This document shows, in pieces, positions 6,308 to 42,544 of a DNA stretch of 64,000 nucleotides. Each line of letters begins with the position of its first letter. Positions within the stretch are counted from its first letter, which is position 1. The stretch is taken from assembly GCA_002492295.1 (NCBI GenBank), contig DKYC01000132.1, positions 6,085 to 70,084 of the forward strand, given 5' to 3'. Origin of the DNA: Lachnospiraceae bacterium UBA7110 (GTDB lineage: Bacteria > Bacillota > Clostridia > Lachnospirales > Lachnospiraceae). Under the pieces are notes generated by a model, which did not search any database, was not told the DNA's origin, and worked only from the letters and a program-made list of their open reading frames with translations. Made by a program: the position numbers and the translations under genes.

Positions 6308-9300
6308 ATGACTGGAAAGATGAAAAAATGCATTGCATTCATGCTGGCACTGGTTCTTATGGTATCACCGCTTTCACAAACGAGAGTATATGCGGCGGAA
6401 ATGCAGGAAAGTCCGACTGCGGATGATACAAAAGAGTCGGAAAATCCGGCAGATGAAGAGAGCGAAAGGGCGTCCGAAACGGAGTCTGGGACAAAGGATG
6501 CTGTGACGCAGGAGCCGGAAACAAATACCGAACCGCAGAGCAGTGCGCAGGATACGGCAGAAGAGGAAAGTCCTGCTGAAGTGGTATCGGAAGAGGAGAG
6601 CGTGACTGAGGCAGCATCGGAACCGGAAACTGTGTCTGAGGCAGTGCCGGAAGAGGAAAGCGCGTCCTTGACGGAATCGGAGTCAGGTTCGGAAATGGAG
6701 ACGGAAAGTGTCCTTGAAACGGAATCTTTGGAAGATAACGGCGCCGGGGAAGAAATCGAGTATGCGCACCCCGAAGCGTTGGAACCGGAAAATGTCCCAT
6801 ATGATGAAAATCAGGATGCGTTTACAGATAAGCTTGTAAACAGCAGAAAGGCAAGGAGCGCTATTCCGGCAAAGTATGATGCGCGCGAGGAAGGTTATCT
6901 GCCCGCAATCCGGAATCAGGGAAGCTGGGGGGCATGTTGGAGTTTTTCCCTGCTTGGTGCGATGGAAGTAGCAGCAGTCAGAGATTTGGGCGTGTCCGCA
7001 GGCAGTATTGACTTGTCGGAGCGGCATCTTGCATATTTCGGATATCATACGGGATATGATGCACTTGATAATGCAAACGGGGATACGATGACCAGTAATC
7101 CTGCGGAATATTATCTGAAGCAGGGAGGTAATGATATCAGGGGCGTCGTGCGCCTGATGAACTGGAATGGCGGAGCGGATGAAAAGGAATATCCTTATTC
7201 AACAAGTTCGCTGCCTGGTGCATTGGACAGAACGGCGGCACAGGATGCCAGACTGTATCTTGAGAATGCATACCGCTATGATTTTAAAGCCGAAGGAAAT
7301 AAAAGTGAAGCAATCAAAGTTGTCAAGAAAATGATAATGGACTATGGCGCAGTGTCATGGTCATATTATAATGATTCGAAATATGTAAATGCGTCTAACG
7401 GAGCATATTATAATAATGTCGGAGGCTCCGGTAAGGCGGTGACAAACCATGCAATTATGGCAGTAGGATGGGATGACAGTTATCAAAAGGAGAACTTCCG
7501 GGAAGATAACCAGCCTGAAAATGACGGCGCATGGATTATCAGAAACAGTTGGGGAGAAAGCAATGGAGACGACGGATATTATTATATCTCTTATGAGGAT
7601 AAGTCCCTTGGTTCCGGAAATCCAGTGTATGCTTTTAGCGTCTGTGATACCGAAAAATATGACAACAATTATTTTTATGGAAATACGGCATATTCCGGTT
7701 CTACAATTGCCGCGAGAAGGGCTGCTCAGGTATATCAGATTAAGAGCGAAAATGCATCACGAGAAAAACTGACAGCAGTGTCATTTTTGAGCGGTACAGC
7801 CGATGTGGATTATGAACTTCAGTTATATAAAAATCCGGATATGGAAAACGGTGTAGTGACAAATCCGACAAGCGGAACAGCGCTGCTTGATACGCCGCAG
7901 AAAGGCACAACGGACTATGCGGGACTTTATACGATAGAGCTTGCGTCTCCGGTTATATTGGATACGGAAGATTATGTGTCAATTGTGCTTACGTTTCCGA
8001 ATACAAGACCTGCTTTGTACTTCGATAGAAGCTATACCTCCGATGATGGAAATTGTAAAGGGGAGCACATTGTTGCAAAAGGACAGAGCTTTTATGGTTC
8101 AAGCCTGACGTCATGGCAGGATAATTATGATAATAACAGAACGTTCCGAATCAATGCATTTACGCTGGATTGTGAGGATGTGCCGCCGGAAGTGGTCAAG
8201 ATTGACAGGATTGAATATGATTATGCAAATACGGCTGTCATTACATGGAGCGGCGGAGCGGGAGCCGATAAAGTTGCAATCTACAGAAGTGAAAATCCAT
8301 CAGACGAAGGTGAACTGATTGCGGATGTCCGTGTGAATTCGGACGAGGAAACATTCCATTATCAGGATAGTGTTCATAAAGGAAAGACATATTACTATAA
8401 TCTGGTTCCGATTTTAATCAATAAAAAAGGAACTGAGGTAAGAGGGCAGACCACAAAGTCTGACGAAATTTTAACGTTCCCTGAAGCTGTAATGCTGGAG
8501 ACAGCGCAGTATGCTGAGGGTACCGGTGTCAGCCTCACATGGAATCTGGCAAAGGGTGCGGAGGGATACCGAATCGAACGAAGCGACAACGGCGGTGATT
8601 TTGCGGAGCTTACTACGGTAGAAGACAGCGCTGTGGTAACATATACGGATTCGTCAGTGCAGGGAGGAAACCGTTACGGTTACCGTGTCCTTTGCTATTA
8701 TACGGCGGAGGATCAGGGCAGGGCTGTGGTTTCGCCGCTCAACGAAAGGAACGTGGAAATCCTGCCGGAACCCGTGAAGATTTCCGGAATTACGGAGCTT
8801 AAACGTGAGAACAACACAACCCGTGTCAGCCTTTCATGGAACAGGGTGGAAAATGCGCAGTCATATGCAGTATACCGGAGCGTGGCGGCAGACGGTTACG
8901 TTTGCATTGCGGAGAACATTACGGATGTGCAGTATGTTGACGATGCGGTTTCCCCGGATACCTCTTACAGCTATAAGGTGATAGTTACTGTAAACGGATT
9001 GAGCTCGGAAAGCGGGAAAACACAGGAGGCGGTGATTCTTACAAAACCGGTCCTGACAGCACTTAAGATGCCGGTATCAGAGCTGGAGCTGAATAAAGAT
9101 AACGCACAGGAGTTTAAAATAACGCCGGTACCGGAAAACTATCCTTATGAAAAGGAGCTTGTATGGTCCGCATTTGACGAGGATGGCAATCCGCTTGAGG
9201 TTGTGCAAAAAAATGACACGATTGTCATAAATGGCACTGACGGCAGGGAGGTTCTTCATCTTTCCGGCAATAAGATTTATGCAGCCCGTCAGTCTGATAC

Positions 9301-10654
9301 GGTAAATATCACATTGCGCGCCCAAATTGATAATATTAGCGCGGAATGCGGCATTTTTGTATACAGTAATGATTTTTGGGTAAGCGGTGTAAAGAATCTC
9401 ACGTATACAGGTGCGCGGCTGACGCAGGATATCAGGGTCTATGACGGGAAAAAGCTTTTGACAGAGGGAATTGATTATACAGTCAGCTATCGAAATAATA
9501 TCAATGTCTCACAGAAAGAGACCTCTGATGCAAAAAAGCCCGCGGTTATAATCAGGGGAAAAGGCAGTTACTCAGGTACACAGACAATTTATTTTGAGAT
9601 ATTGCCGGAGCCTGTTTCCGATGCCGATAAGCGCTCAATCCTGAAAGCAAAAGTAAAAAGTATCAAAATTTTCGAATATGAAGGAACGGCAGTGACGCCG
9701 AAGCCTGTTGTCACTGACGGAAAGAAAACACTTGTGGAGGGCACGGATTACAGGCTTACTTATAAAAATAACAGAAGTGCCGGAAAGGCAGAAGTGATAA
9801 TAAGCGGAATCAATGCTTATAAGGGTACGCGGAGCGAAGCTTTTACGATTAACTGTAATCTTGCGAAGGAGGGAATGGTTCGCGTGGCGCTTGACACACG
9901 GGATGTTCCTTATGCGAAAGGCGGTGCAAAACCCACCCTGCGTGTATACTGCGGGAACAGGCTGCTTAGGGAAGGCACGGATTACAGGCTTACTTATAAA
10001 AATAACAAAGCGGTTGCAAGTGCGTCAGCATCAAAGGCACCCACGGCAGTTCTTTTGGGAAAAGGATTCTATAAAGGCAAAAAAGAGATTTCTTTCAACA
10101 TTGTACAACAGGACATCGGGGAACTGACGCTGACGGCAAAGGACAAAGTCTATACCGGAAAAGCCGGGAAAAATACGACAAGCTTTGTGATTACCGACAA
10201 GGACGGCAAAAATCTGTCGGCAGGCAGGGATTATGACAGGACATCCGTCGTATATACTTATGCGGAAACCGGAGAACCTGTTGGGGATGCGGATATTTTG
10301 GAACGCGGAACAAGGGTGCGCATAACCGTGAAGGCTGCACAAAAAGGATTTTACAGCGGGACGATAAGCGGCGAATACAGGGTTGCGTCATATGATATTG
10401 CGAAAGCAAGGGTAACGGTTGAGGCACAGACTTATACCGGCAGTGCGGTTGAGCCGGATTCCGGTACCGGGGTCAAGGTGACATACAGGGGACAAAGCGG
10501 TACGCTTACGGAAGGCGTGGATTATATTATCACGGGTTATGAGAATAATATCAATAAAGGTACGGCGAAACTGCGTATTGTGGGAATCGGTGATTATTGC
10601 GGCACGAAGACGGCGAGCTTTAAAATAAAGACAAAAATCTTTCGGTGGTGGTAG
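6308..10654 (+). CDS. Secreted papain-like (C1 family) cysteine protease with acidic linker, lectin-like domain, FN3 repeats and C-terminal beta-rich repeats
   Basis: Signal peptide. Catalytic motifs RNQGSWGACWSF (Cys), NHAIMAVGW (His), WIIRNSWG (Asn). FN3-like W/Y repeats; repeated GxDYxxxYxNN..G.A units. Confidence 0.9.
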   Translation: MTGKMKKCIAFMLALVLMVSPLSQTRVYAAEMQESPTADDTKESENPADEESERASETESGTKDAVTQEPETNTEPQSSAQDTAEEESPAEVVSEEESVTEAASEPETVSEAVPEEESASLTESESGSEMETESVLETESLEDNGAGEEIEYAHPEALEPENVPYDENQDAFTDKLVNSRKARSAIPAKYDAREEGYLPAIRNQGSWGACWSFSLLGAMEVAAVRDLGVSAGSIDLSERHLAYFGYHTGYDALDNANGDTMTSNPAEYYLKQGGNDIRGVVRLMNWNGGADEKEYPYSTSSLPGALDRTAAQDARLYLENAYRYDFKAEGNKSEAIKVVKKMIMDYGAVSWSYYNDSKYVNASNGAYYNNVGGSGKAVTNHAIMAVGWDDSYQKENFREDNQPENDGAWIIRNSWGESNGDDGYYYISYEDKSLGSGNPVYAFSVCDTEKYDNNYFYGNTAYSGSTIAARRAAQVYQIKSENASREKLTAVSFLSGTADVDYELQLYKNPDMENGVVTNPTSGTALLDTPQKGTTDYAGLYTIELASPVILDTEDYVSIVLTFPNTRPALYFDRSYTSDDGNCKGEHIVAKGQSFYGSSLTSWQDNYDNNRTFRINAFTLDCEDVPPEVVKIDRIEYDYANTAVITWSGGAGADKVAIYRSENPSDEGELIADVRVNSDEETFHYQDSVHKGKTYYYNLVPILINKKGTEVRGQTTKSDEILTFPEAVMLETAQYAEGTGVSLTWNLAKGAEGYRIERSDNGGDFAELTTVEDSAVVTYTDSSVQGGNRYGYRVLCYYTAEDQGRAVVSPLNERNVEILPEPVKISGITELKRENNTTRVSLSWNRVENAQSYAVYRSVAADGYVCIAENITDVQYVDDAVSPDTSYSYKVIVTVNGLSSESGKTQEAVILTKPVLTALKMPVSELELNKDNAQEFKITPVPENYPYEKELVWSAFDEDGNPLEVVQKNDTIVINGTDGREVLHLSGNKIYAARQSDTVNITLRAQIDNISAECGIFVYSNDFWVSGVKNLTYTGARLTQDIRVYDGKKLLTEGIDYTVSYRNNINVSQKETSDAKKPAVIIRGKGSYSGTQTIYFEILPEPVSDADKRSILKAKVKSIKIFEYEGTAVTPKPVVTDGKKTLVEGTDYRLTYKNNRSAGKAEVIISGINAYKGTRSEAFTINCNLAKEGMVRVALDTRDVPYAKGGAKPTLRVYCGNRLLREGTDYRLTYKNNKAVASASASKAPTAVLLGKGFYKGKKEISFNIVQQDIGELTLTAKDKVYTGKAGKNTTSFVITDKDGKNLSAGRDYDRTSVVYTYAETGEPVGDADILERGTRVRITVKAAQKGFYSGTISGEYRVASYDIAKARVTVEAQTYTGSAVEPDSGTGVKVTYRGQSGTLTEGVDYIITGYENNINKGTAKLRIVGIGDYCGTKTASFKIKTKIFRWW

Positions 10655-19156: not shown

Positions 19157-19255
19157 GTGAAATACTCCAATGCCAATATCCTGGCACAGGTAGGAGAATC
19201 TATGCTTGCGCAGGCGAATCAAAACAATCAGGCGGTGGTCAGCCTGCTTGGATAA
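19157..19255 (+). pseudogene. Flagellin C-terminal (D0) remnant
   Basis: Translates to VKYSNANILAQVGESMLAQANQNNQAVVSLLG*, the typical flagellin C-terminus. In-frame stop at 19139-19141 upstream, no RBS. Confidence 0.85.
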
Positions 19256-21011: not shown

Positions 21012-23597
21012 ATGGATTATTCAAAAAAACTTCTTGAACGGACTGGCGAAAACGTTTCGGCCAATGCAAACCGTGGGCAGCATAATGATATGAAAAATGT
21101 TCAGAATTTGGAGGCTGTCATCAATGAGGGGCTTCGTGTCGCCCTGCAGGAGGAGATGCCGGACCGGACACTGGAGGTGCTGCTGGAGCATTTGGGAAAA
21201 GCGCTGAATGGGGACCGTACTTATATATTTGAGCAGAATGAATCCGGCGGCGATGATAACACTTATGAATGGGTGGCTGACGGGGTGGAACCGGAAAAAG
21301 AGAATCTTCAGGATGTACCTCCTGAGGTATGTGCGTCCTGGTATCGGAATTTCAGTATTGGCAGGCACATTGTTATTGGATGCCTGGAAGATATTCAGGA
21401 GACGGACCCTTTGCAATATGAAAATTTGAAAAGACAGGACATACATTCCCTTGTGGTTGTTCCTCTTTATAATGGTGAAAAGATTATAGGCTTTTACGGT
21501 GTGGACAATCCTCCCGTGAAGTCGTTGGAATACGCATCAAATATGCTTCAGACGGCGGCATATTTTATTGTATCTTCCTTAAGACAGCGTAATTTGGTTC
21601 GTGAACTGCAAAAACGGAGCCATAAGGTTCTTCATGCCCTAAGCGTTGATTATCTGGGTATATATCAGGTGAATTTTGATACAGGTGAATACGAAATATA
21701 CCGCAACAGCAAGCGATTGGACATGGATTGGGGCGTTGCGCTTGCGGATGGCTATCAGGCAGCTATGGAACGGTATATCTCCCGGTATGTGGTTGCCCGC
21801 GATCAGGAACGGCTTCGCGCCATGACGAAAAAGAATTATGTACTTTCCCAGCTTAGGACAAAAAAGAAGTTTTCTGTCCGGTATCAGGTAAAAGACATCG
21901 CCTCAGGGTTAAAGCATATGGAGATTCATTTTTCCATTGCGGAAAAGACGGGTGAGGGTAACTCTGCAATTTTTGCCCAAAGGGATGTCAATGCAGTGGT
22001 GGATCAGGAAGAAAAGAATAAGCTGGAAGCAAGGCGGAGCCTTGAGGATATTTTAGAGGGGGCAAAAACCGGAATTTGGACGATTGAGCTTGAGGAGGGC
22101 TGTCAGCCAAGGATGTATGCGGACCGGACCATGCGGATTCTTTTGGGAGTGCCGGATGACATCGAACCGGAGGCATGTTACCGGCATTGGTTTGAAAATA
22201 TTGAATCGGATTATGTGGAAATGGTGCAGGAGGCTGTGAAGGAGATATTGGAGAACGGGCGCTCCGAGGTCATTTACCCGTGGAATCATCCCGAGCTTGG
22301 GAAAATATATGTCCGCTGCGGCGGTGTCCCGGACAAAGCATTCAAAAAAACGGGCGTCTGCCTGAGCGGATACCATCAGGATATCACGGAAATTACGGTG
22401 GCGAGGAAGAAGCAGGAGCAGGCAATTATGGAGCTGCTGGAGAAAGTGAGACGGGCAAATTCAGCAAAAAGCGAATTCCTTTCCCATATGTCGCACGATC
22501 TTAGGACTCCTATCAACGGTATTTTAGGAATGCTTGCAATTATGGAAAAAATCGAGGATGATCCCGAGCAGCAGAAAACATGCCGAAAAAAAATCCGTGT
22601 GGCAACGGAGCATTTGCTGTCTTTGGTCAATGATGTTCTTCAGGTCAGCAAGCTGGAGAGCGGAAGACCTGCGGAGGTTGAGGAACCTTTTGAACTTCAC
22701 GATGCATTGGATGACTGTATTACGATTTTGTCCGCCCGGGCGCAGGAACAGGGAATCCGGCTGGTGCTTGAGGAGGTTGACCTGCAGCATGGCAGACTGA
22801 TTGGAAATCCGCTGCACTTAAGACAGATACTGATGAATGTCATTGATAATGCCATTAAATATAATCACCCTAATGGCTCCGTGTTTGTCCAGGCGAGGGA
22901 GATTGCATGCAAAGACGGGATTGCGGAATACCGATTCGTGATTGAAGATACAGGAATTGGAATTGGGGAAGAATTTAAAAAACACATTTTTGAACCGTTT
23001 ACCCAGGAGCAGCAGGGTGCAAGAACGCACTATAATGGCGTTGGACTTGGCATGTCTATTGTGAAGAAGCTGATAGATCAAATGAAAGGGACGATTGAGA
23101 TAGAGAGCCAGGTTGGCGAGGGAAGCGTGGTTCGGATAATGCTGCCTATCCGGGTTGATGAAGCGTGGAGTGCGCAGCCCGTGGATGAGGAGCGGAATTT
23201 CCAAAGCAGTATTGCCGGAATGCGGATTCTTTTGGTGGAGGACAATGAAATCAATTGTGAAATTGTAGAGTTCATGCTGAAGGATGTCGGTGCGGAGGTT
23301 GTAACTGCAAATGACGGAAAAGCTGCTGTTGATGCGTTTGCGGCATCCGATCCGGGAACATTTGACTGTGTGCTCATGGACCTGATGATGCCTGTTATGA
23401 GCGGATATGAGGCGACCCGTGTGATTCGCAGTCTGGATCGGCCGGATGCAAAAGACGTACCTATCATAGCGTTGTCGGCGAACGCATTTGAGGAGGATGT
23501 TACAATGGCAAAGGATGCCGGGATGAATGATCATTTGGCGAAGCCTGTGGACATCAATAAAATGTTTAAGGTAATAAGCCGGCTGAAACACCGATAG
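21012..23597 (+). CDS. Cytoplasmic hybrid sensor histidine kinase (GAF-PAS-PAS-HisKA-HATPase-REC)
   Basis: H-box FLSHMSHDLRTPINGI; NVIDNAIKY; DTGIGI; GVGLGMSIVK; receiver LLVEDN...DCVLMDLMMP; no TM helix. Start could be 20997. Confidence 0.92.
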   Translation: MDYSKKLLERTGENVSANANRGQHNDMKNVQNLEAVINEGLRVALQEEMPDRTLEVLLEHLGKALNGDRTYIFEQNESGGDDNTYEWVADGVEPEKENLQDVPPEVCASWYRNFSIGRHIVIGCLEDIQETDPLQYENLKRQDIHSLVVVPLYNGEKIIGFYGVDNPPVKSLEYASNMLQTAAYFIVSSLRQRNLVRELQKRSHKVLHALSVDYLGIYQVNFDTGEYEIYRNSKRLDMDWGVALADGYQAAMERYISRYVVARDQERLRAMTKKNYVLSQLRTKKKFSVRYQVKDIASGLKHMEIHFSIAEKTGEGNSAIFAQRDVNAVVDQEEKNKLEARRSLEDILEGAKTGIWTIELEEGCQPRMYADRTMRILLGVPDDIEPEACYRHWFENIESDYVEMVQEAVKEILENGRSEVIYPWNHPELGKIYVRCGGVPDKAFKKTGVCLSGYHQDITEITVARKKQEQAIMELLEKVRRANSAKSEFLSHMSHDLRTPINGILGMLAIMEKIEDDPEQQKTCRKKIRVATEHLLSLVNDVLQVSKLESGRPAEVEEPFELHDALDDCITILSARAQEQGIRLVLEEVDLQHGRLIGNPLHLRQILMNVIDNAIKYNHPNGSVFVQAREIACKDGIAEYRFVIEDTGIGIGEEFKKHIFEPFTQEQQGARTHYNGVGLGMSIVKKLIDQMKGTIEIESQVGEGSVVRIMLPIRVDEAWSAQPVDEERNFQSSIAGMRILLVEDNEINCEIVEFMLKDVGAEVVTANDGKAAVDAFAASDPGTFDCVLMDLMMPVMSGYEATRVIRSLDRPDAKDVPIIALSANAFEEDVTMAKDAGMNDHLAKPVDINKMFKVISRLKHR

Positions 23598-32836: not shown

Positions 32837-33724
32837 ATGGATTCATTAAATTATAAGGCAAGAGCTAAAATAAACTTAGGTTTAGACGTTTGCAGACGGC
32901 TGGAAAACGGTTATCATGAAGTAAAAATGATTATGCAGACCATTGATTTGTATGATGAGCTGGTTTTAAGAAAAAGACAGGAACCGGATATCGTGCTGTT
33001 GATTAACAGTGTGGACAACCTCGGAAAACCTGAGGACAATTTGATTTATAAAGCGGTAAAATGTATGCGGGAACGTTATCATATCGAACAGGGAATCGAA
33101 GTAAGCCTGAAAAAGAATATCCCTGTGGCGGCAGGAATGGCGGGAGGCAGCACGGACGCGGCGGGCGTTATGCTTGCCATCAATGAGATGTTTGCGCTTG
33201 GAAGCAGCAGGGAGGAGCTGATGGAGCTTGCCCTGCCGCTTGGCGCCGATATTCCATTCTGTATTATGGGCGGTACGGCGCTTGCGGAGGGAATCGGTGA
33301 AAAACTAACGCCGCTGCCAAAGCCGCCCCATGCGGATATTGTGGTGGTAAAGCCGCCGATTATGGTGTCAACGAAAAAAGTATACCAGAGCCTTGATTTG
33401 GGGAAAATGGAAACACACCCCGATATTGACGGTATGGTAAAGGCGCTTGCGGACGGCGATCTGAAAGGGATTACACAACGCATGGAAAATGTGATGGAGA
33501 CTGTTACGGAGAAGGAATTTCCAATTATCACGGATATTAAGAAAATGCTGACGGGCAACGGTGCGCTGGGTGCAATGATGAGTGGGAGCGGACCAAGCAT
33601 TTTTGGCGTATTCCAGGATACCGCGACAGCCGCTGACGCAGCGGAATATGTGCGCAGGACACTGGAACAAAAGGGTATTTATGCGCAGATCCATGTCACG
33701 ACATTTTACAATCAACAGGAGTAA
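32837..33724 (+). CDS. ispE: 4-diphosphocytidyl-2-C-methyl-D-erythritol kinase
   Basis: AKINLGLDV, KNIPVAAGMAGGSTDAA, LGADIPF, MMSGSGPS. Confidence 0.96.
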   Translation: MDSLNYKARAKINLGLDVCRRLENGYHEVKMIMQTIDLYDELVLRKRQEPDIVLLINSVDNLGKPEDNLIYKAVKCMRERYHIEQGIEVSLKKNIPVAAGMAGGSTDAAGVMLAINEMFALGSSREELMELALPLGADIPFCIMGGTALAEGIGEKLTPLPKPPHADIVVVKPPIMVSTKKVYQSLDLGKMETHPDIDGMVKALADGDLKGITQRMENVMETVTEKEFPIITDIKKMLTGNGALGAMMSGSGPSIFGVFQDTATAADAAEYVRRTLEQKGIYAQIHVTTFYNQQE

Positions 33725-39370: not shown

Positions 39371-40015
39371 ATGATGAAAGCAGAAGCAATAATATTTGAT
39401 TTGGACGGAACGATGTGGGATGCGGTAGGAGGCATTTTACTGACATGGAATCAGGTTGTGTCAAACCATCCGGAATGCAGGAAGGAGCCGATTTCGCCTG
39501 AGGAGTTGAGCGGCTGTCTGGGGCTGCCAATGACGGAGATTGGAGCCAGACTGTTTCCTGATGTGCCACAGGAAAAGCAGCAGATGCTTTTGGACGAGTG
39601 CTGTGCGCTGGAAAACCAGTATTTGAGCGAGCACGGGGGTATTTTATATCCGAAGCTTGAAAAGACGCTGCTTGCGCTCAAAAAGGACTATAAGCTTTTT
39701 GTGGTCAGCAACTGCCAAAAGGGGTATGTTGAGAGCTTTATCAAAGCGCACAGGCTTGAAAAGTGTTTTGACGATATCGAGTGCTGGGGGAATAACCTTT
39801 TGCCGAAGGGTGAGAATAATAAGCTTATTATGAAGCGAAACGGTGTGACGCGGGCGGTTTACGTCGGTGATACTGCGGGCGACGAGGAATCGGCAAGAGT
39901 GGCGGGAATCCCGTTTGTATATGCGTCGTACGGTTTTGGCGAGGCAAAGGCGCCCGATTACGTGCTGACGGAGTTCGTCAAACTGCCGGAGGTTATGGAA
40001 AGAATAACGTTTTAA
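39371..40015 (+). CDS. HAD-family hydrolase
   Basis: FDLDGT, VVSN, YVGDTAGD. Confidence 0.9.
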   Translation: MMKAEAIIFDLDGTMWDAVGGILLTWNQVVSNHPECRKEPISPEELSGCLGLPMTEIGARLFPDVPQEKQQMLLDECCALENQYLSEHGGILYPKLEKTLLALKKDYKLFVVSNCQKGYVESFIKAHRLEKCFDDIECWGNNLLPKGENNKLIMKRNGVTRAVYVGDTAGDEESARVAGIPFVYASYGFGEAKAPDYVLTEFVKLPEVMERITF

Positions 40016-40027
40016 AACGATAGTATT

Positions 40028-40071
40028 AAAAAACAGGAGTATCTGCCGGCTGCAGAGGTACTCCTGTTTTT
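40028..40071 (+). terminator. Intrinsic terminator
   Basis: AAAAAACAGGAGTA..CTG / CAG..TACTCCTGTTTTT. Confidence 0.8.
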
Positions 40072-40121
40072 GCTTTTTTCAGGAAGGATTGTTATTTGTT
40101 GAAATGGTTGTTCGAAAAGGG

Positions 40122-40149
40122 TAAAAAAAGGAAGATATTTTGCCGATAT
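40122..40149 (+). promoter_or_regulatory. sigma28 (SigD/FliA)-type promoter
   Basis: TAAA (40122-40125)-N16-GCCGATAT (40142-40149), matching the SigD consensus, just downstream of a terminator. Confidence 0.8.
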
Positions 40150-40215
40150 AAATATATAGGATAAAAGAAGCAAATGGAATTGCGCAAAAACTCAACGGAA
40201 TGAGGAGGGATTTTT

Positions 40216-41517
40216 ATGCAAATCAGAATGTTTACAGATAATAATATGAATATAACGCTTGGCAGTGCGGCGCAGGAGAAACGTCAGCATGTGCAGACGC
40301 AGAACGGACCTTTTGACGGACCGCAGTGCAGGGTTACGATTTCAAAAGAGGGAAGAAGGCTCAGTGAGCAGTCAGACGGACATGCACAAAAGAGTGTACA
40401 GTTACTGAAAGCTGAGAGGATGATGCGGCAGGAGGCGGATGAAAAAGAGCTGTCAGAGGCAACGCAGAGTGAATATTACGACTTGATTAAGGAAATAGAT
40501 AAGACTATAAAATCAATGAGAAACTCCAATATGGCAGGGGAGGATTTGGAAACCATCCAAAAAAAGCAGGACGCAATCCGCGCTATAAGCGAGCAGAAAC
40601 AAAAGCAGCAGGAGGAAAATCAAAAGAGGGCAAAAGAGGCACAGCGGATGGCAATGCAGTCGTCGGAAATGCAGGATGAGATTGATCAGGGGAACCGAGA
40701 TTTGCTGATTATGCTAAAGAGCATTGAGGAGTCTGAGAAAGCGGAAGAAGAGCGTGAGGGCACAAAATCAGGCGATGACGGCGGTAGTGATACAATCGCG
40801 GATTCGGCAACACAGTTTGCGGCTTCTTCGAGAAAGCGCGAATTGGATGTAGTGGGTATCATTAATCAGTTGAGTGAGGACGGATACAGCTATCTTGCCC
40901 GTGCAGATGAGATTGCTCAGAAGGTATTGGATGAGGCGAAAAGCTTAAAAGAGCTGCTTCATGACGAGAATACTTCAGATGCGGAAAAAAGGGAAGCTGT
41001 AATGAGCTATGGCTTGAAAATGGCGCCAAAAGCATCTGCCGAATTGGAAATCCTGCTAGGCAGGGGCCACTCCGAGGAAGAAAAGGAAGAGGCATTAAAC
41101 AGATACCGTAGTATGATTGTATCAGACAGCGATTATGCCGATTACCGACGGCGCGGTCAGCAGATGATCAGGGATGCCAAGGAGTGTAAAAGCGAGCACA
41201 TAAAAGCCAATCCGCTTCAGGGTATGGAGGAGACGAGGGACAGCATGATCCAGTCGGCTGTGGATGCTGCTTTCAACGAGGCTTCACAGGGCAGGCTTGA
41301 CGAGGATTCGCAGAAGCTTAAAGATGAGGTAAAGGATTTAATTGATGAGCGCAACGATATAGACCATGTAGATTCCGAGGAGAAAAAGGACGAGGAGGAA
41401 GAAAAGGAAATCGGGGATTTGCTTGAGCCGAAGGAGGAGACGGAAAATACCGATAAGAACCCTGATGAGGCTGACGAAGAAAAGTCCGGGGAAAAAATAA
41501 TTGTGACACAAGGATAG
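40216..41517 (+). CDS. Hypothetical acidic coiled-coil protein
   Basis: 433-aa ORF with GAGGAGG RBS; rich in E/Q/K/D; no signal peptide or TM helix. Confidence 0.85.
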   Translation: MQIRMFTDNNMNITLGSAAQEKRQHVQTQNGPFDGPQCRVTISKEGRRLSEQSDGHAQKSVQLLKAERMMRQEADEKELSEATQSEYYDLIKEIDKTIKSMRNSNMAGEDLETIQKKQDAIRAISEQKQKQQEENQKRAKEAQRMAMQSSEMQDEIDQGNRDLLIMLKSIEESEKAEEEREGTKSGDDGGSDTIADSATQFAASSRKRELDVVGIINQLSEDGYSYLARADEIAQKVLDEAKSLKELLHDENTSDAEKREAVMSYGLKMAPKASAELEILLGRGHSEEEKEEALNRYRSMIVSDSDYADYRRRGQQMIRDAKECKSEHIKANPLQGMEETRDSMIQSAVDAAFNEASQGRLDEDSQKLKDEVKDLIDERNDIDHVDSEEKKDEEEEKEIGDLLEPKEETENTDKNPDEADEEKSGEKIIVTQG

Positions 41518-41545
41518 TGGAAGCGTTTCAAAAGGATGTGATTTT

Positions 41546-42130
41546 ATGAAAGTCGGGGAAGCAACAAAGCTGTATCGGGCGCAGCGGGCAGCCATTATTG
41601 ATCGGCGCAGAAAACTCGTCAAAAAGAAGGAGGAGGCTGACAGGAAGGTCAGGACTGCTTTTGATCCGGAGAAAAAGGAGATTTATGCGAATGGGGCGGC
41701 AACCTTGGAGCTTACGATTGGAGCGCTGAATGAAAAGTTTGATGAGAATCAGGAGGTGCTTGACAGGCTGACAGAACAATATGTATCTGTTTTTAATGCG
41801 GAGGTTTCCAAACAGCAGAAGGATGCGATGCAGGATGCCGCTGTGGAGATGAGCAGGATTTTGGAGACGGCAAGGCGCATCGGTAAGGGTGCAAGGGTTC
41901 CAGCTTCCGATGAAAAAAAGGTGATGGAATATAGCATGGAGCTGTATCTTGCTGCAAAGAATCTTGCGATGCTCAACAAAATGAACCGGAAAAAGAAGGA
42001 AAAGTATGATTCCCTATGGGATGACGAGGAAGAAAAGCAGGAGTATGATCCGGAAGGCAAGGCAGAGAATGCAGAGACTTCCGTTGAGGCACCGGAAGAG
42101 CTTGGAGACCTTGGTCTGATACAGGAATAA
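41546..42130 (+). CDS. Hypothetical helical protein
   Basis: 194-aa ORF 28 nt downstream of the previous gene, with AAGGA RBS; motif ARRI..G..VP..DEKK.MEY..ELY.AAK. Confidence 0.85.
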   Translation: MKVGEATKLYRAQRAAIIDRRRKLVKKKEEADRKVRTAFDPEKKEIYANGAATLELTIGALNEKFDENQEVLDRLTEQYVSVFNAEVSKQQKDAMQDAAVEMSRILETARRIGKGARVPASDEKKVMEYSMELYLAAKNLAMLNKMNRKKKEKYDSLWDDEEEKQEYDPEGKAENAETSVEAPEELGDLGLIQE

Positions 42131-42232
42131 CAAATGTTATTAAATACGTAACGAAAAATATACAAAGAATATGGACAGGCAGTTTTTATAAAGTGAAACG
42201 ACAAGAAAGCTGCGGTCAAATGGAGGTTTATT

Positions 42233-42544
42233 ATGGTAAAGAAAATCGAAGATAACAATATGAGTGAAGCCTTGGAAAGCAGCCTTGCACTGGTTGATTT
42301 TTCCGCGACATGGTGCGGCCCGTGTAAGATGCTTGCGCCCGTGCTTGAGGAAATATCCGAGGAGTTTACGGGAAAGCTTGCCTTTTTCAATGCGGATGTC
42401 GATGCGAATGACGCGCTTGCGTTAAAGTATGGCATTCAGAATATCCCCGCGCTTGTTATTTTTAAAAATGGCGAGATTGCCGGCAGGAGCGTAGGATTCC
42501 AGTCAAAGGAGAAGCTGAAGGCGTTTATCAATGAGCATATGTAA
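42233..42544 (+). CDS. trxA: Thioredoxin
   Basis: DFSATWCGPCKM. Confidence 0.95.
   Translation: MVKKIEDNNMSEALESSLALVDFSATWCGPCKMLAPVLEEISEEFTGKLAFFNADVDANDALALKYGIQNIPALVIFKNGEIAGRSVGFQSKEKLKAFINEHM

Follow-up and report, generated by a model that had tools for sequence, protein, structure and literature searches.

Two adjacent genes in a stretch of DNA from Lachnospiraceae bacterium UBA7110 (GenBank assembly GCA_002492295.1, contig DKYC01000132.1, positions 6,085 to 70,084 of the forward strand) appear to belong to two unrelated protein families, each an accessory part of the late flagellar regulon and probably gated by CsrA. Comparison of sequences places these families in Lachnospiraceae and in some other Clostridia, and we give this reading a probability of roughly 0.6. 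The stretch, called the window below, comprises 64 kb of a 3.28-Mb, 172-contig genome, and its contig is labelled C153. The first open reading frame (ORF) of the pair is referred to as P1 and the second as P2. A preliminary description of the locus had noted a terminator followed by TAAA, a 16-nucleotide spacer and a -10 box, a strong ribosome-binding site and two ORFs 28 nucleotides apart, all of which are present. The elements of the proposed transcription unit are as follows:

40122-40149, + strand: promoter of the SigD/sigma-28 type, with the -35 element TAAA at 40122-40125, a 16-nucleotide spacer and the -10 element GCCGATAT at 40142-40149
40170-40183, + strand: leader hairpin 1 (GCAA-AUGGAA-UUGC), whose loop contains GGA; putative CsrA site 1 (from the alignment of 27 leaders)
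40191-40208, + strand: leader hairpin 2, CUCA-ACGGAA-UGAG (40191-40204), running into the Shine-Dalgarno sequence, putative CsrA site 2
40202-40208, + strand: Shine-Dalgarno sequence GAGGAGG, 7 nucleotides before the ATG of P1
40216-41517, + strand: P1 ORF, 433 amino acids
41509-41545, + strand: P1-P2 junction with two GGA motifs, of which ACAAGGAUAG overlaps the P1 stop codon and CAAAAGGAUGUGA is the P2 Shine-Dalgarno sequence
41546-42130, + strand: P2 ORF, 194 amino acids, 28 nucleotides after P1

The promoter is the first line of evidence for a flagellar connection. TAAA-N16-GCCGATAT has its sole exact match within the window at this position, with 0.01 matches expected by chance, and the sequence at 40122-40149 has every element of the sigma-28 class (-35 TAAA, a spacer of 15-17 nucleotides, and -10 (G/M)CCGATA(T/A)). 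The published sigma-28 consensus of Lachnospiraceae is TAAA-N16-17-MCGATAa (PMC3720852), and the window box, which is equivalent to TAAA-N17-CCGATAT, has the same spacing. In the whole genome we found 40 matches to TAAA-N15-17-CCGATA(A/T), and the intergenic boxes that precede an ORF stand before genes for flagellin, FlgM (PF04316) and FlaG (PF03646), all three on contig C131, as well as before a GT11 glycosyltransferase gene, two DUF6033 genes, a gene for a 229-amino-acid protein and P1. Transcription is predicted to start near 40156, 7-8 nucleotides past GCCGATAT. Public RNA runs, compared as assembled contigs, covered the locus sparsely; a single metatranscriptome contig from a relative, 151 nucleotides (one read length) long, starts at 40153, which is suggestive only.

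The box is also retained upstream of homologs. For P1 we compared 34 loci from species-representative genomes, which hold 30 leader-bearing P1-family genes. In 22 of the 30 genes the motif [ACT]CGATA[AT] occurred 8-75 nucleotides before the first leader hairpin, compared to 3% of control windows (binomial p = 1e-27), and the distance between box and hairpin is nearly fixed, at 26-32 nucleotides in most P1 loci and 48-57 nucleotides in the closest clade. Among P2 homologs, 15 of 29 had NCGATA[AT] 20-170 nucleotides upstream, compared to 10% of control windows (p = 2e-8), and a P2-like gene in a genome of another Clostridia family (G425) is preceded by TAAA-N16-CCGAcAA. Taken together, the retention of the box in homologs, its fit to the published consensus and its presence before late flagellar genes of the same genome support the SigD control that had been suggested from the window's letters, and both families very probably belong to the SigD late flagellar regulon. 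They share the promoter architecture TAAA-N16-17-(M)CGATA(T/A) with sigma-28 regulon members such as hag, flgM and yvyC of Bacillus subtilis and with the fliC promoters of Roseburia, Eubacterium and Butyrivibrio; unlike those genes, P1 and P2 encode no named flagellar proteins, are not part of the flagellar clusters and are missing from most of the relatives that have flagella. One further gene with this promoter, on contig C122 (minus-strand position 33309), stands behind a perfect TAAA-N16-GCCGATAT and encodes the 229-amino-acid Thr/Lys-rich protein MSVTGINSNDISNVYTTGTTAK, which has no family match and may likewise belong to the SigD regulon.

A second line of evidence comes from the distribution of the genes among flagellated bacteria, for which we sampled 301 Lachnospiraceae genomes (300 genera) and used FlhA as the marker of flagella. 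FlhA was present in 162 of the 301 genomes, in all 36 that carry P2 and in all 3 that carry P1. In a class-level sample, five P2-like genes were found in three other families of Clostridia, and all five genomes were FlhA-positive, so that 41 of 41 holders of P2 or P2-like genes have the marker. The restriction to flagellated genomes that a flagellar role predicts thus holds for P1, P2 and the P2-like genes of other Clostridia alike. For P2, 36/36 compared to 162/301 gives a hypergeometric probability of 3e-11 if genera are independent, a value that overstates the significance because the genomes are not. Of the 162 flagellated genera, 126 lack P2 and 159 lack P1, and neither gene is therefore essential for building a flagellum.

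The third line of evidence is the leader of P1. Both of its hairpins have six-base AnGGAA loops, and their GGA motifs are 21 nucleotides apart. Across 27 aligned leaders of P1-family genes the blocks GCAAA.GGA.T.GC and (T)CAA.GGA.TG are invariant; within hairpin 1 the invariant positions are G13 C14 A15 A16 A17 ... G19 G20 A21 ... G25 C26, and the motif (T)CAAnGGA.TG of hairpin 2 is invariant or nearly so. Stem pairing is kept in 90% of alignment cells for hairpin 1 and 94% for hairpin 2 (92% overall), the fifth pair of hairpin 1 covaries (CG in 7 sequences, UA in 7), and hairpin 2 is present in the centroid fold. No family in Rfam matched the P1 leader. P2 orthologs in other genera retain Shine-Dalgarno regions of the form ACAAGGAUGUG, which we take to be the classical high-affinity CsrA consensus RUACARGGAUGU, and several of them also carry an upstream hairpin with GGA in its loop (GUACAUGGAUGUAC, UUACAAGGAUGUAA or CAUGAAAUGGAUUUCAUG).

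A CsrA-repressed leader was expected to have two or more GGA motifs spaced 10-60 nucleotides apart, one looped out in a hairpin and another at or next to the Shine-Dalgarno sequence, and the P1 leader fits this pattern. The same two-site design is seen in this genome in the leader of the flagellin gene on contig C3 (GGAAGAA-AGGA-UUCUUCU ... CACAAGGAGG) and in that of one DUF6033 gene. The genome also holds fliW (C131:23512-23883) and, directly downstream of it, a CsrA-like ORF (C131:22990-23480, minus strand), which begins MLALSRKKGEALMINND, ends ...VYRKEVYLQIQEANKE and contains a stretch of N (23096-23421). Owing to this gap, a Pfam search found no CsrA in the genome and the ORF was identified by reading the DNA; N runs of about 300 nucleotides each account for about 65 kb of the assembly.

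In B. subtilis, a CsrA dimer occludes the Shine-Dalgarno sequence of hag until FliW, freed by the export of flagellin, removes CsrA, and the system is described as running at about one CsrA dimer per hag transcript (PMC6529632). The P1 leader resembles the targets of this Hag-FliW-CsrA circuit (B. subtilis hag, Clostridioides difficile fliC, Campylobacter jejuni flaA) in its two GGA motifs about 21 nucleotides apart, of which, as in the hag leader, one is placed in the loop of a hairpin and the other at the Shine-Dalgarno sequence, and in a genome that encodes both fliW and csrA. Unlike the known targets, P1 and P2 are not flagellins. Since the P1 and P2 leaders share the design of the hag leader, we infer that both genes are CsrA targets, and by this analogy the chance that CsrA and FliW gate their translation is slightly better than even. 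In such a scheme, P1 and P2 would share a single transcript begun at the SigD promoter (40122-40149), as the comparison of loci suggests; a CsrA dimer on the two GGA hairpins of the P1 leader, together with CsrA binding at the GGA motifs that flank the P2 Shine-Dalgarno sequence, would block the ribosome; and the export of flagellin would free FliW to remove CsrA, so that P1 and P2 would be made only while the filament is being built.

The proteins themselves gave no match to a characterised family. P1 and its paralogs matched nothing in Pfam or NCBIfam, and neither did P2, 36 members of its family or the P2-like proteins of other Clostridia; the P2 profile found nothing below E = 0.2 among the sequences of the PDB. 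In Foldseek searches of the PDB, the AlphaFold2 models of P1 (best E 0.01) and P2 (best E 0.4) retrieved only generic helical bundles and coiled coils with low TM-scores. The earlier statement that the two proteins are not named among standard flagellar genes is in keeping with this, as P1 and P2 match no Pfam, NCBIfam or PDB entry.

P1 has no Trp, an isoelectric point of 4.65 and a net charge of -14 over its last 50 residues. It lacks a hydrophobic segment (maximum Kyte-Doolittle value of 0.51 in a 19-residue window, compared to 0.48 in P2), and no Sec signal or transmembrane segment was found in either protein. The motif VTISKEGRRLS stands at residue 40, within the family motif F.GPQC(R/K)VTISKEGR.LS, and the EK-rich repeat segments SDAEKREAVMSY and SEEEKEEALNRY stand at residues 254 and 286. 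Each of the P1 traits listed in the preliminary description (no Trp, signal peptide or transmembrane helix, the VTISKEGRRLS motif, the repeat and the acidic tail) was found in its place; the alignment shows the internal repeat to be an insertion or duplication limited to the closest relatives. The AlphaFold2 model is all-helical (mean predicted local distance difference test score, pLDDT, of 72), with residues 1-38 disordered (pLDDT <50) and followed by long helices. We found 82 homologs of P1; those with a named source are all from Lachnospiraceae or Acetatifactor-like gut bacteria, and the rest come from unnamed gut metagenome contigs. One P1 homolog (G213:C58:20525-21718, genus g214) contains an in-frame TGA and may be a pseudogene or reflect a sequencing error.

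The P2 family is larger, with 417 close homologs and 1252 cluster representatives that match its profile (E <= 1e-3). P2 has an isoelectric point of 5.23, the segment ARRIGKGARVPASDEKKVMEYSMELYLAAK at residue 109 (the ARRIGKGARVP... block), and an acidic tail of net charge -9 that contains SLWDDEE, which bears out its description as a helical protein with this segment and an acidic tail. In its model (mean pLDDT 91), residues 3-37 and 41-113 form a long, asymmetric helical hairpin, two short helices follow (120-146) and the acidic tail is disordered; the invariant residues R111, G115, V118, P119, D122, E123, Y134 and K138 cluster at the end of the hairpin.

In Acetatifactor-type genomes, P1 has expanded into tandem paralogs. 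Side by side with full-length paralogs stand genes for proteins of about 175 amino acids (L061:3397, L048:1223, L072:4001) that have the P1 leader and its first ~55 residues, joined to an unrelated C-terminal part, and at one locus (L065) three leader-bearing genes lie in a row. The module common to P1 and the ~175-amino-acid proteins reads MQ(I/V)K.IT.N...FGPE(C/Y).V(T/S)IS.EG+.LS. A targeting region would be expected to look like this, with the N-terminal module conserved and the bodies behind it variable. Other traits of export substrates are seen in part: P1 and P2 lack Sec signals and transmembrane segments and the N-terminus of P1 is disordered, but in its model the P2 of the window is helical from residue 3. 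We hold it as a tentative view, at somewhat less than even odds, that P1-type proteins are substrates of flagellar type III export.

A similar N-terminal layout is found in FlgM, which is itself a flagellar export substrate. In an alignment of Lachnospiraceae sequences, FlgM consists of MRIDAYNQI.Q.Y, about 17 low-complexity residues, D.LEIS..GKD.Q.AKQAV... and the sigma-28-binding helices. P1 opens in the same way, with MQIRMF..., about 30 residues and then CRVTISKEGRRLS. The openings of short-type P2 homologs (for example ...GVVLEISEEAKA) and of the P2-like protein of G425 (MKINSIDKNLY, about 30 amino acids, DTLDISKAAY) are likewise FlgM-like, and DUF6033 proteins have a similar N-terminal layout (...GIKLSDNAKNLL). 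What FlgM, P1, short-type P2 and DUF6033 have in common is M-(K/R/Q)-I, some 25-40 low-complexity residues and (V/L)-x-(I/L)-S-x-x-(G/A)-(K/R), and all of them stand behind SigD boxes. Such a layout, common to several proteins with SigD boxes, hints at a common N-terminal function, for which export recognition would be the obvious candidate because FlgM is exported by the flagellum.

Homology to FlgM is another matter. Neither P1 nor P2 matched PF04316 at E <= 1. When P1 was compared by hhalign with 23 Lachnospiraceae FlgM sequences, only the motif of about 12 residues aligned (P = 0.009, probability 4.6%), and the sigma-28-binding helices were absent. P2 had been suspected of distant kinship because ARRI..G..VP..DEKKL looks like K..I..G.Y.V....A.KL, and hhalign gave this a probability of 1.9%; we therefore rejected both proteins as FlgM homologs. 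The resemblance, noted earlier, of VTISKEGRRLS in P1 to a V.IS..(A/G)..L motif of FlgM is thus real but limited to those ~12 residues, and it does not extend to membership of the FlgM family.

DUF6033 (PF19498) behaves much like P1 and P2 while having a different fold family. Two genes of this family lie behind SigD boxes in the genome (C101, minus-strand position 7731; C144, plus-strand position 9973), and one has the GGA-loop hairpin AAAUGGCAAAACGGAUUUUCGCCAUUU in its leader. DUF6033 was present in 87 of the 301 Lachnospiraceae genomes, all 87 of them FlhA-positive (hypergeometric probability 1e-30, not corrected for phylogeny), and, together with the SigD boxes, this makes it look like another family of the flagellar regulon. 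P1 and P2 are not members of it, as neither matched PF19498, whereas the genome's two true members match it with E = 1e-74 and 2e-41. Two genera have a DUF6033 gene directly adjoining a short-type P2-like gene (G033:C45:130174-131365, locus L032; G002:C3:95161-96419).

The preliminary description had favoured a different relation between the two proteins, in which P1 would be a late export substrate and P2 its dedicated chaperone or partner, or the two would form a secreted effector pair. The genes are indeed adjacent and probably co-transcribed, here and in the loci of the nearest clade (L039-L046); P2 is small, acidic and all-helical, as are FliS, FliT and FlgN, and belongs to the late regulon, and P1 has a disordered N-terminus. 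The distribution of the genes speaks against such a pair. P2 was found in 36 of the 301 genera, but P1 in only 3; genome G234 carries two copies of P1 without any P2, in G213 P1 and P2 are on separate contigs, and the same-genus genome G248 lacks P1 and has just a distant P2-like gene. None of 29 P2 loci from other genomes has P1 upstream, P2 usually standing alone among variable neighbours, and 26 P1 loci of the Acetatifactor type have no P2 downstream. Linkage of P2 with a client gene was not conserved in these 29 loci, and no neighbour recurred in them other than DUF6033 in two genomes. P1 also diverges much faster than P2 (about 55% compared to about 84% identity in the same relatives), which is unexpected of a co-evolving pair. 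Unlike FliS, FliT and FlgN, P2 forms a long asymmetric hairpin with an acidic disordered tail and not a compact bundle; the models of these chaperones matched none of 36 P2-family members (E <= 0.1), and no PDB entry matched P2 in sequence or fold. Because each gene occurs apart from the other and P2 is mostly stand-alone, P1 and P2 are not an obligate pair; a substrate with its partner, or an effector pair, is quite unlikely, and a role of P2 as the dedicated chaperone of P1 is very unlikely.

P2, and perhaps the motif region of P1, could instead act as a checkpoint regulator that binds SigD, FliW, CsrA, flagellin or the export gate and so tunes the expression of late genes, without being cargo. 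This would suit the conservation of P2 with its invariant surface motif R..G..VP..DE...Y...K, its apparent control by a flagellin-like SigD promoter and GGA leader, the FlgM-like N-termini of short-type P2 homologs and of the G425 homolog, and the alignment of V.IS..G(K/R) in P1 with the point at which the sigma-28-binding region begins in FlgM. The profile comparisons with FlgM (1.9% for P2 and, for the motif of P1 only, 4.6%), the absence of the C-terminal sigma-28-binding helix and the absence of P2 from most flagellated genera make such a regulator unlikely. Lastly, promoter and leader might be coincidental or serve another system, and P1 and P2 might be ordinary coiled-coil proteins of the cytoskeleton or cell envelope with a spurious link to flagella. 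Their lack of functional annotation, generic helical folds without an informative structural match and position outside any flagellar cluster would fit; however, the -10 box at a fixed distance in homologs, the presence of FlhA in 41 of 41 holders of P2 and P2-like genes and the occurrence of the box before known late flagellar genes in this genome leave a coincidence extremely improbable.

Several observations weigh against our own reading of P1 and P2 as accessory, CsrA-gated members of the late flagellar regulon. At many homolog loci the -35 element is degenerate, the counts of co-occurrence are not phylogenetically independent, and RNA support is thin, with few metatranscriptome contigs over P2 and parts of P1. 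At the level of profiles, the likeness to FlgM does not stand up. The stems of the leader hairpins vary so little that they give weak covariation (most pairs are invariant, just 2 differ on both sides, and the observed count was equalled in 13 of 500 shuffles), and leader conservation could therefore serve another RNA-binding factor, or the ribosome only. The integrity of csrA is unreadable through the N run of the assembly. In addition, a loose genome-wide search for a GGA hairpin combined with GGA at the Shine-Dalgarno sequence gave hundreds of matches, did not single out flagellar genes and was too noisy to define a regulon.

Within this reading of the two families as accessory regulon members, the most likely role of P1 would be that of a non-structural substrate of flagellar type III export, and that of P2 a cytoplasmic or exported accessory factor acting on a conserved flagellar partner other than P1. 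The closest functional analogy may be with C. jejuni, in which FedA-D and the flagellum-secreted proteins CiaI, FspA and FlaC are sigma-28-dependent, non-structural and made together with flagellin; some of this set are exported through the flagellum, and the set is dispensable for motility (PMC5223770). P1 and P2 differ in belonging to another phylum and host niche, and a sequence relationship was neither sought nor expected.

The neighbouring features of the window are as follows:

39371-40015, + strand: gene for a HAD-family phosphatase upstream of P1, ending in an intrinsic terminator
40029-40079, + strand: intrinsic terminator of the HAD gene (RNA fold -24 kcal/mol, z = -3.94), a stem followed by the U-run UUUUUGCUUUUUU
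42233-42544: thioredoxin gene trxA, starting 102 nucleotides downstream of P2

P1-P2 adjacency is confined to the nearest clade, in which the order is metG, HAD, P1 (1-2 tandem copies), P2 and trxA; the tandem duplicate of P1 lies between the HAD gene and P2 at L043:4001-6585 and L046:15-1591. No convincing terminator was found between P2 and trxA (42131-42232), and these two genes also adjoin each other in the closest relatives; transcripts begun at the SigD promoter may therefore run on into trxA. At another locus (L031:335-1319, genome G005), the gene immediately upstream of a short-type P2-like gene encodes a 328-amino-acid coiled-coil protein, MAISVQAGLPATNFGNTIDNEARK, which has no family match; the layout is like that of P1 and P2, yet the protein has no detectable similarity to P1.

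The operon had also been described as far from any flagellar cluster. This is true in so far as the genome's seven flagellin-N matches and its FlhA, FliW and FlgM matches all lie on contigs other than C153, but the window does contain a remnant of a flagellin gene, a 33-codon ORF at 19157-19255 (+ strand) that encodes VKYSNANILAQVGESMLAQANQNNQAVVSLLG, corresponding to the C-terminal D0 helix of flagellin, about 21 kb upstream of the operon.

P1 and P2 do not point to a new kind of system. What would be new, on the sequence comparisons presented here, are the uncharacterised members of the late regulon and the use of a flagellin-type CsrA leader on genes other than flagellin. Together with DUF6033, they make up three families, unannotated or known only as a DUF, whose promoters, leaders and strict co-occurrence link them to flagella, and they provide a testable list of candidates for flagellar accessory or flagellum-exported proteins. 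The checkpoint of B. subtilis has been described as a nearly 1:1, flagellin-specific circuit (PMC6529632). If the GGA leaders are true CsrA sites, the FliW-CsrA checkpoint would reach beyond flagellin, the CsrA regulon would be multi-gene and its stoichiometry would need rethinking.

The flagella of Lachnospiraceae are major immune targets in the gut, and to our knowledge almost nothing about them has been studied beyond the core genes. We put forward a broader and more speculative proposal, against which the odds clearly lie, that gut Clostridia, especially Lachnospiraceae, export a set of polymorphic non-structural proteins through the flagellar type III apparatus. The set would include the P1 family with its ~175-amino-acid relatives, short-type P2 and DUF6033, each marked by a FlgM-like N-terminal module (M-(K/R/Q)-I, low-complexity residues and V-x-(I/L)-S-x-x-(G/A)-(K/R) as the proposed export mark) and licensed by SigD together with FliW-CsrA. 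If this is true, the flagella of commensals would double as a secretion system, and P1-type proteins, if exported by the flagellum, would represent a new route of protein delivery by commensals and a source of antigens made alongside flagellin.

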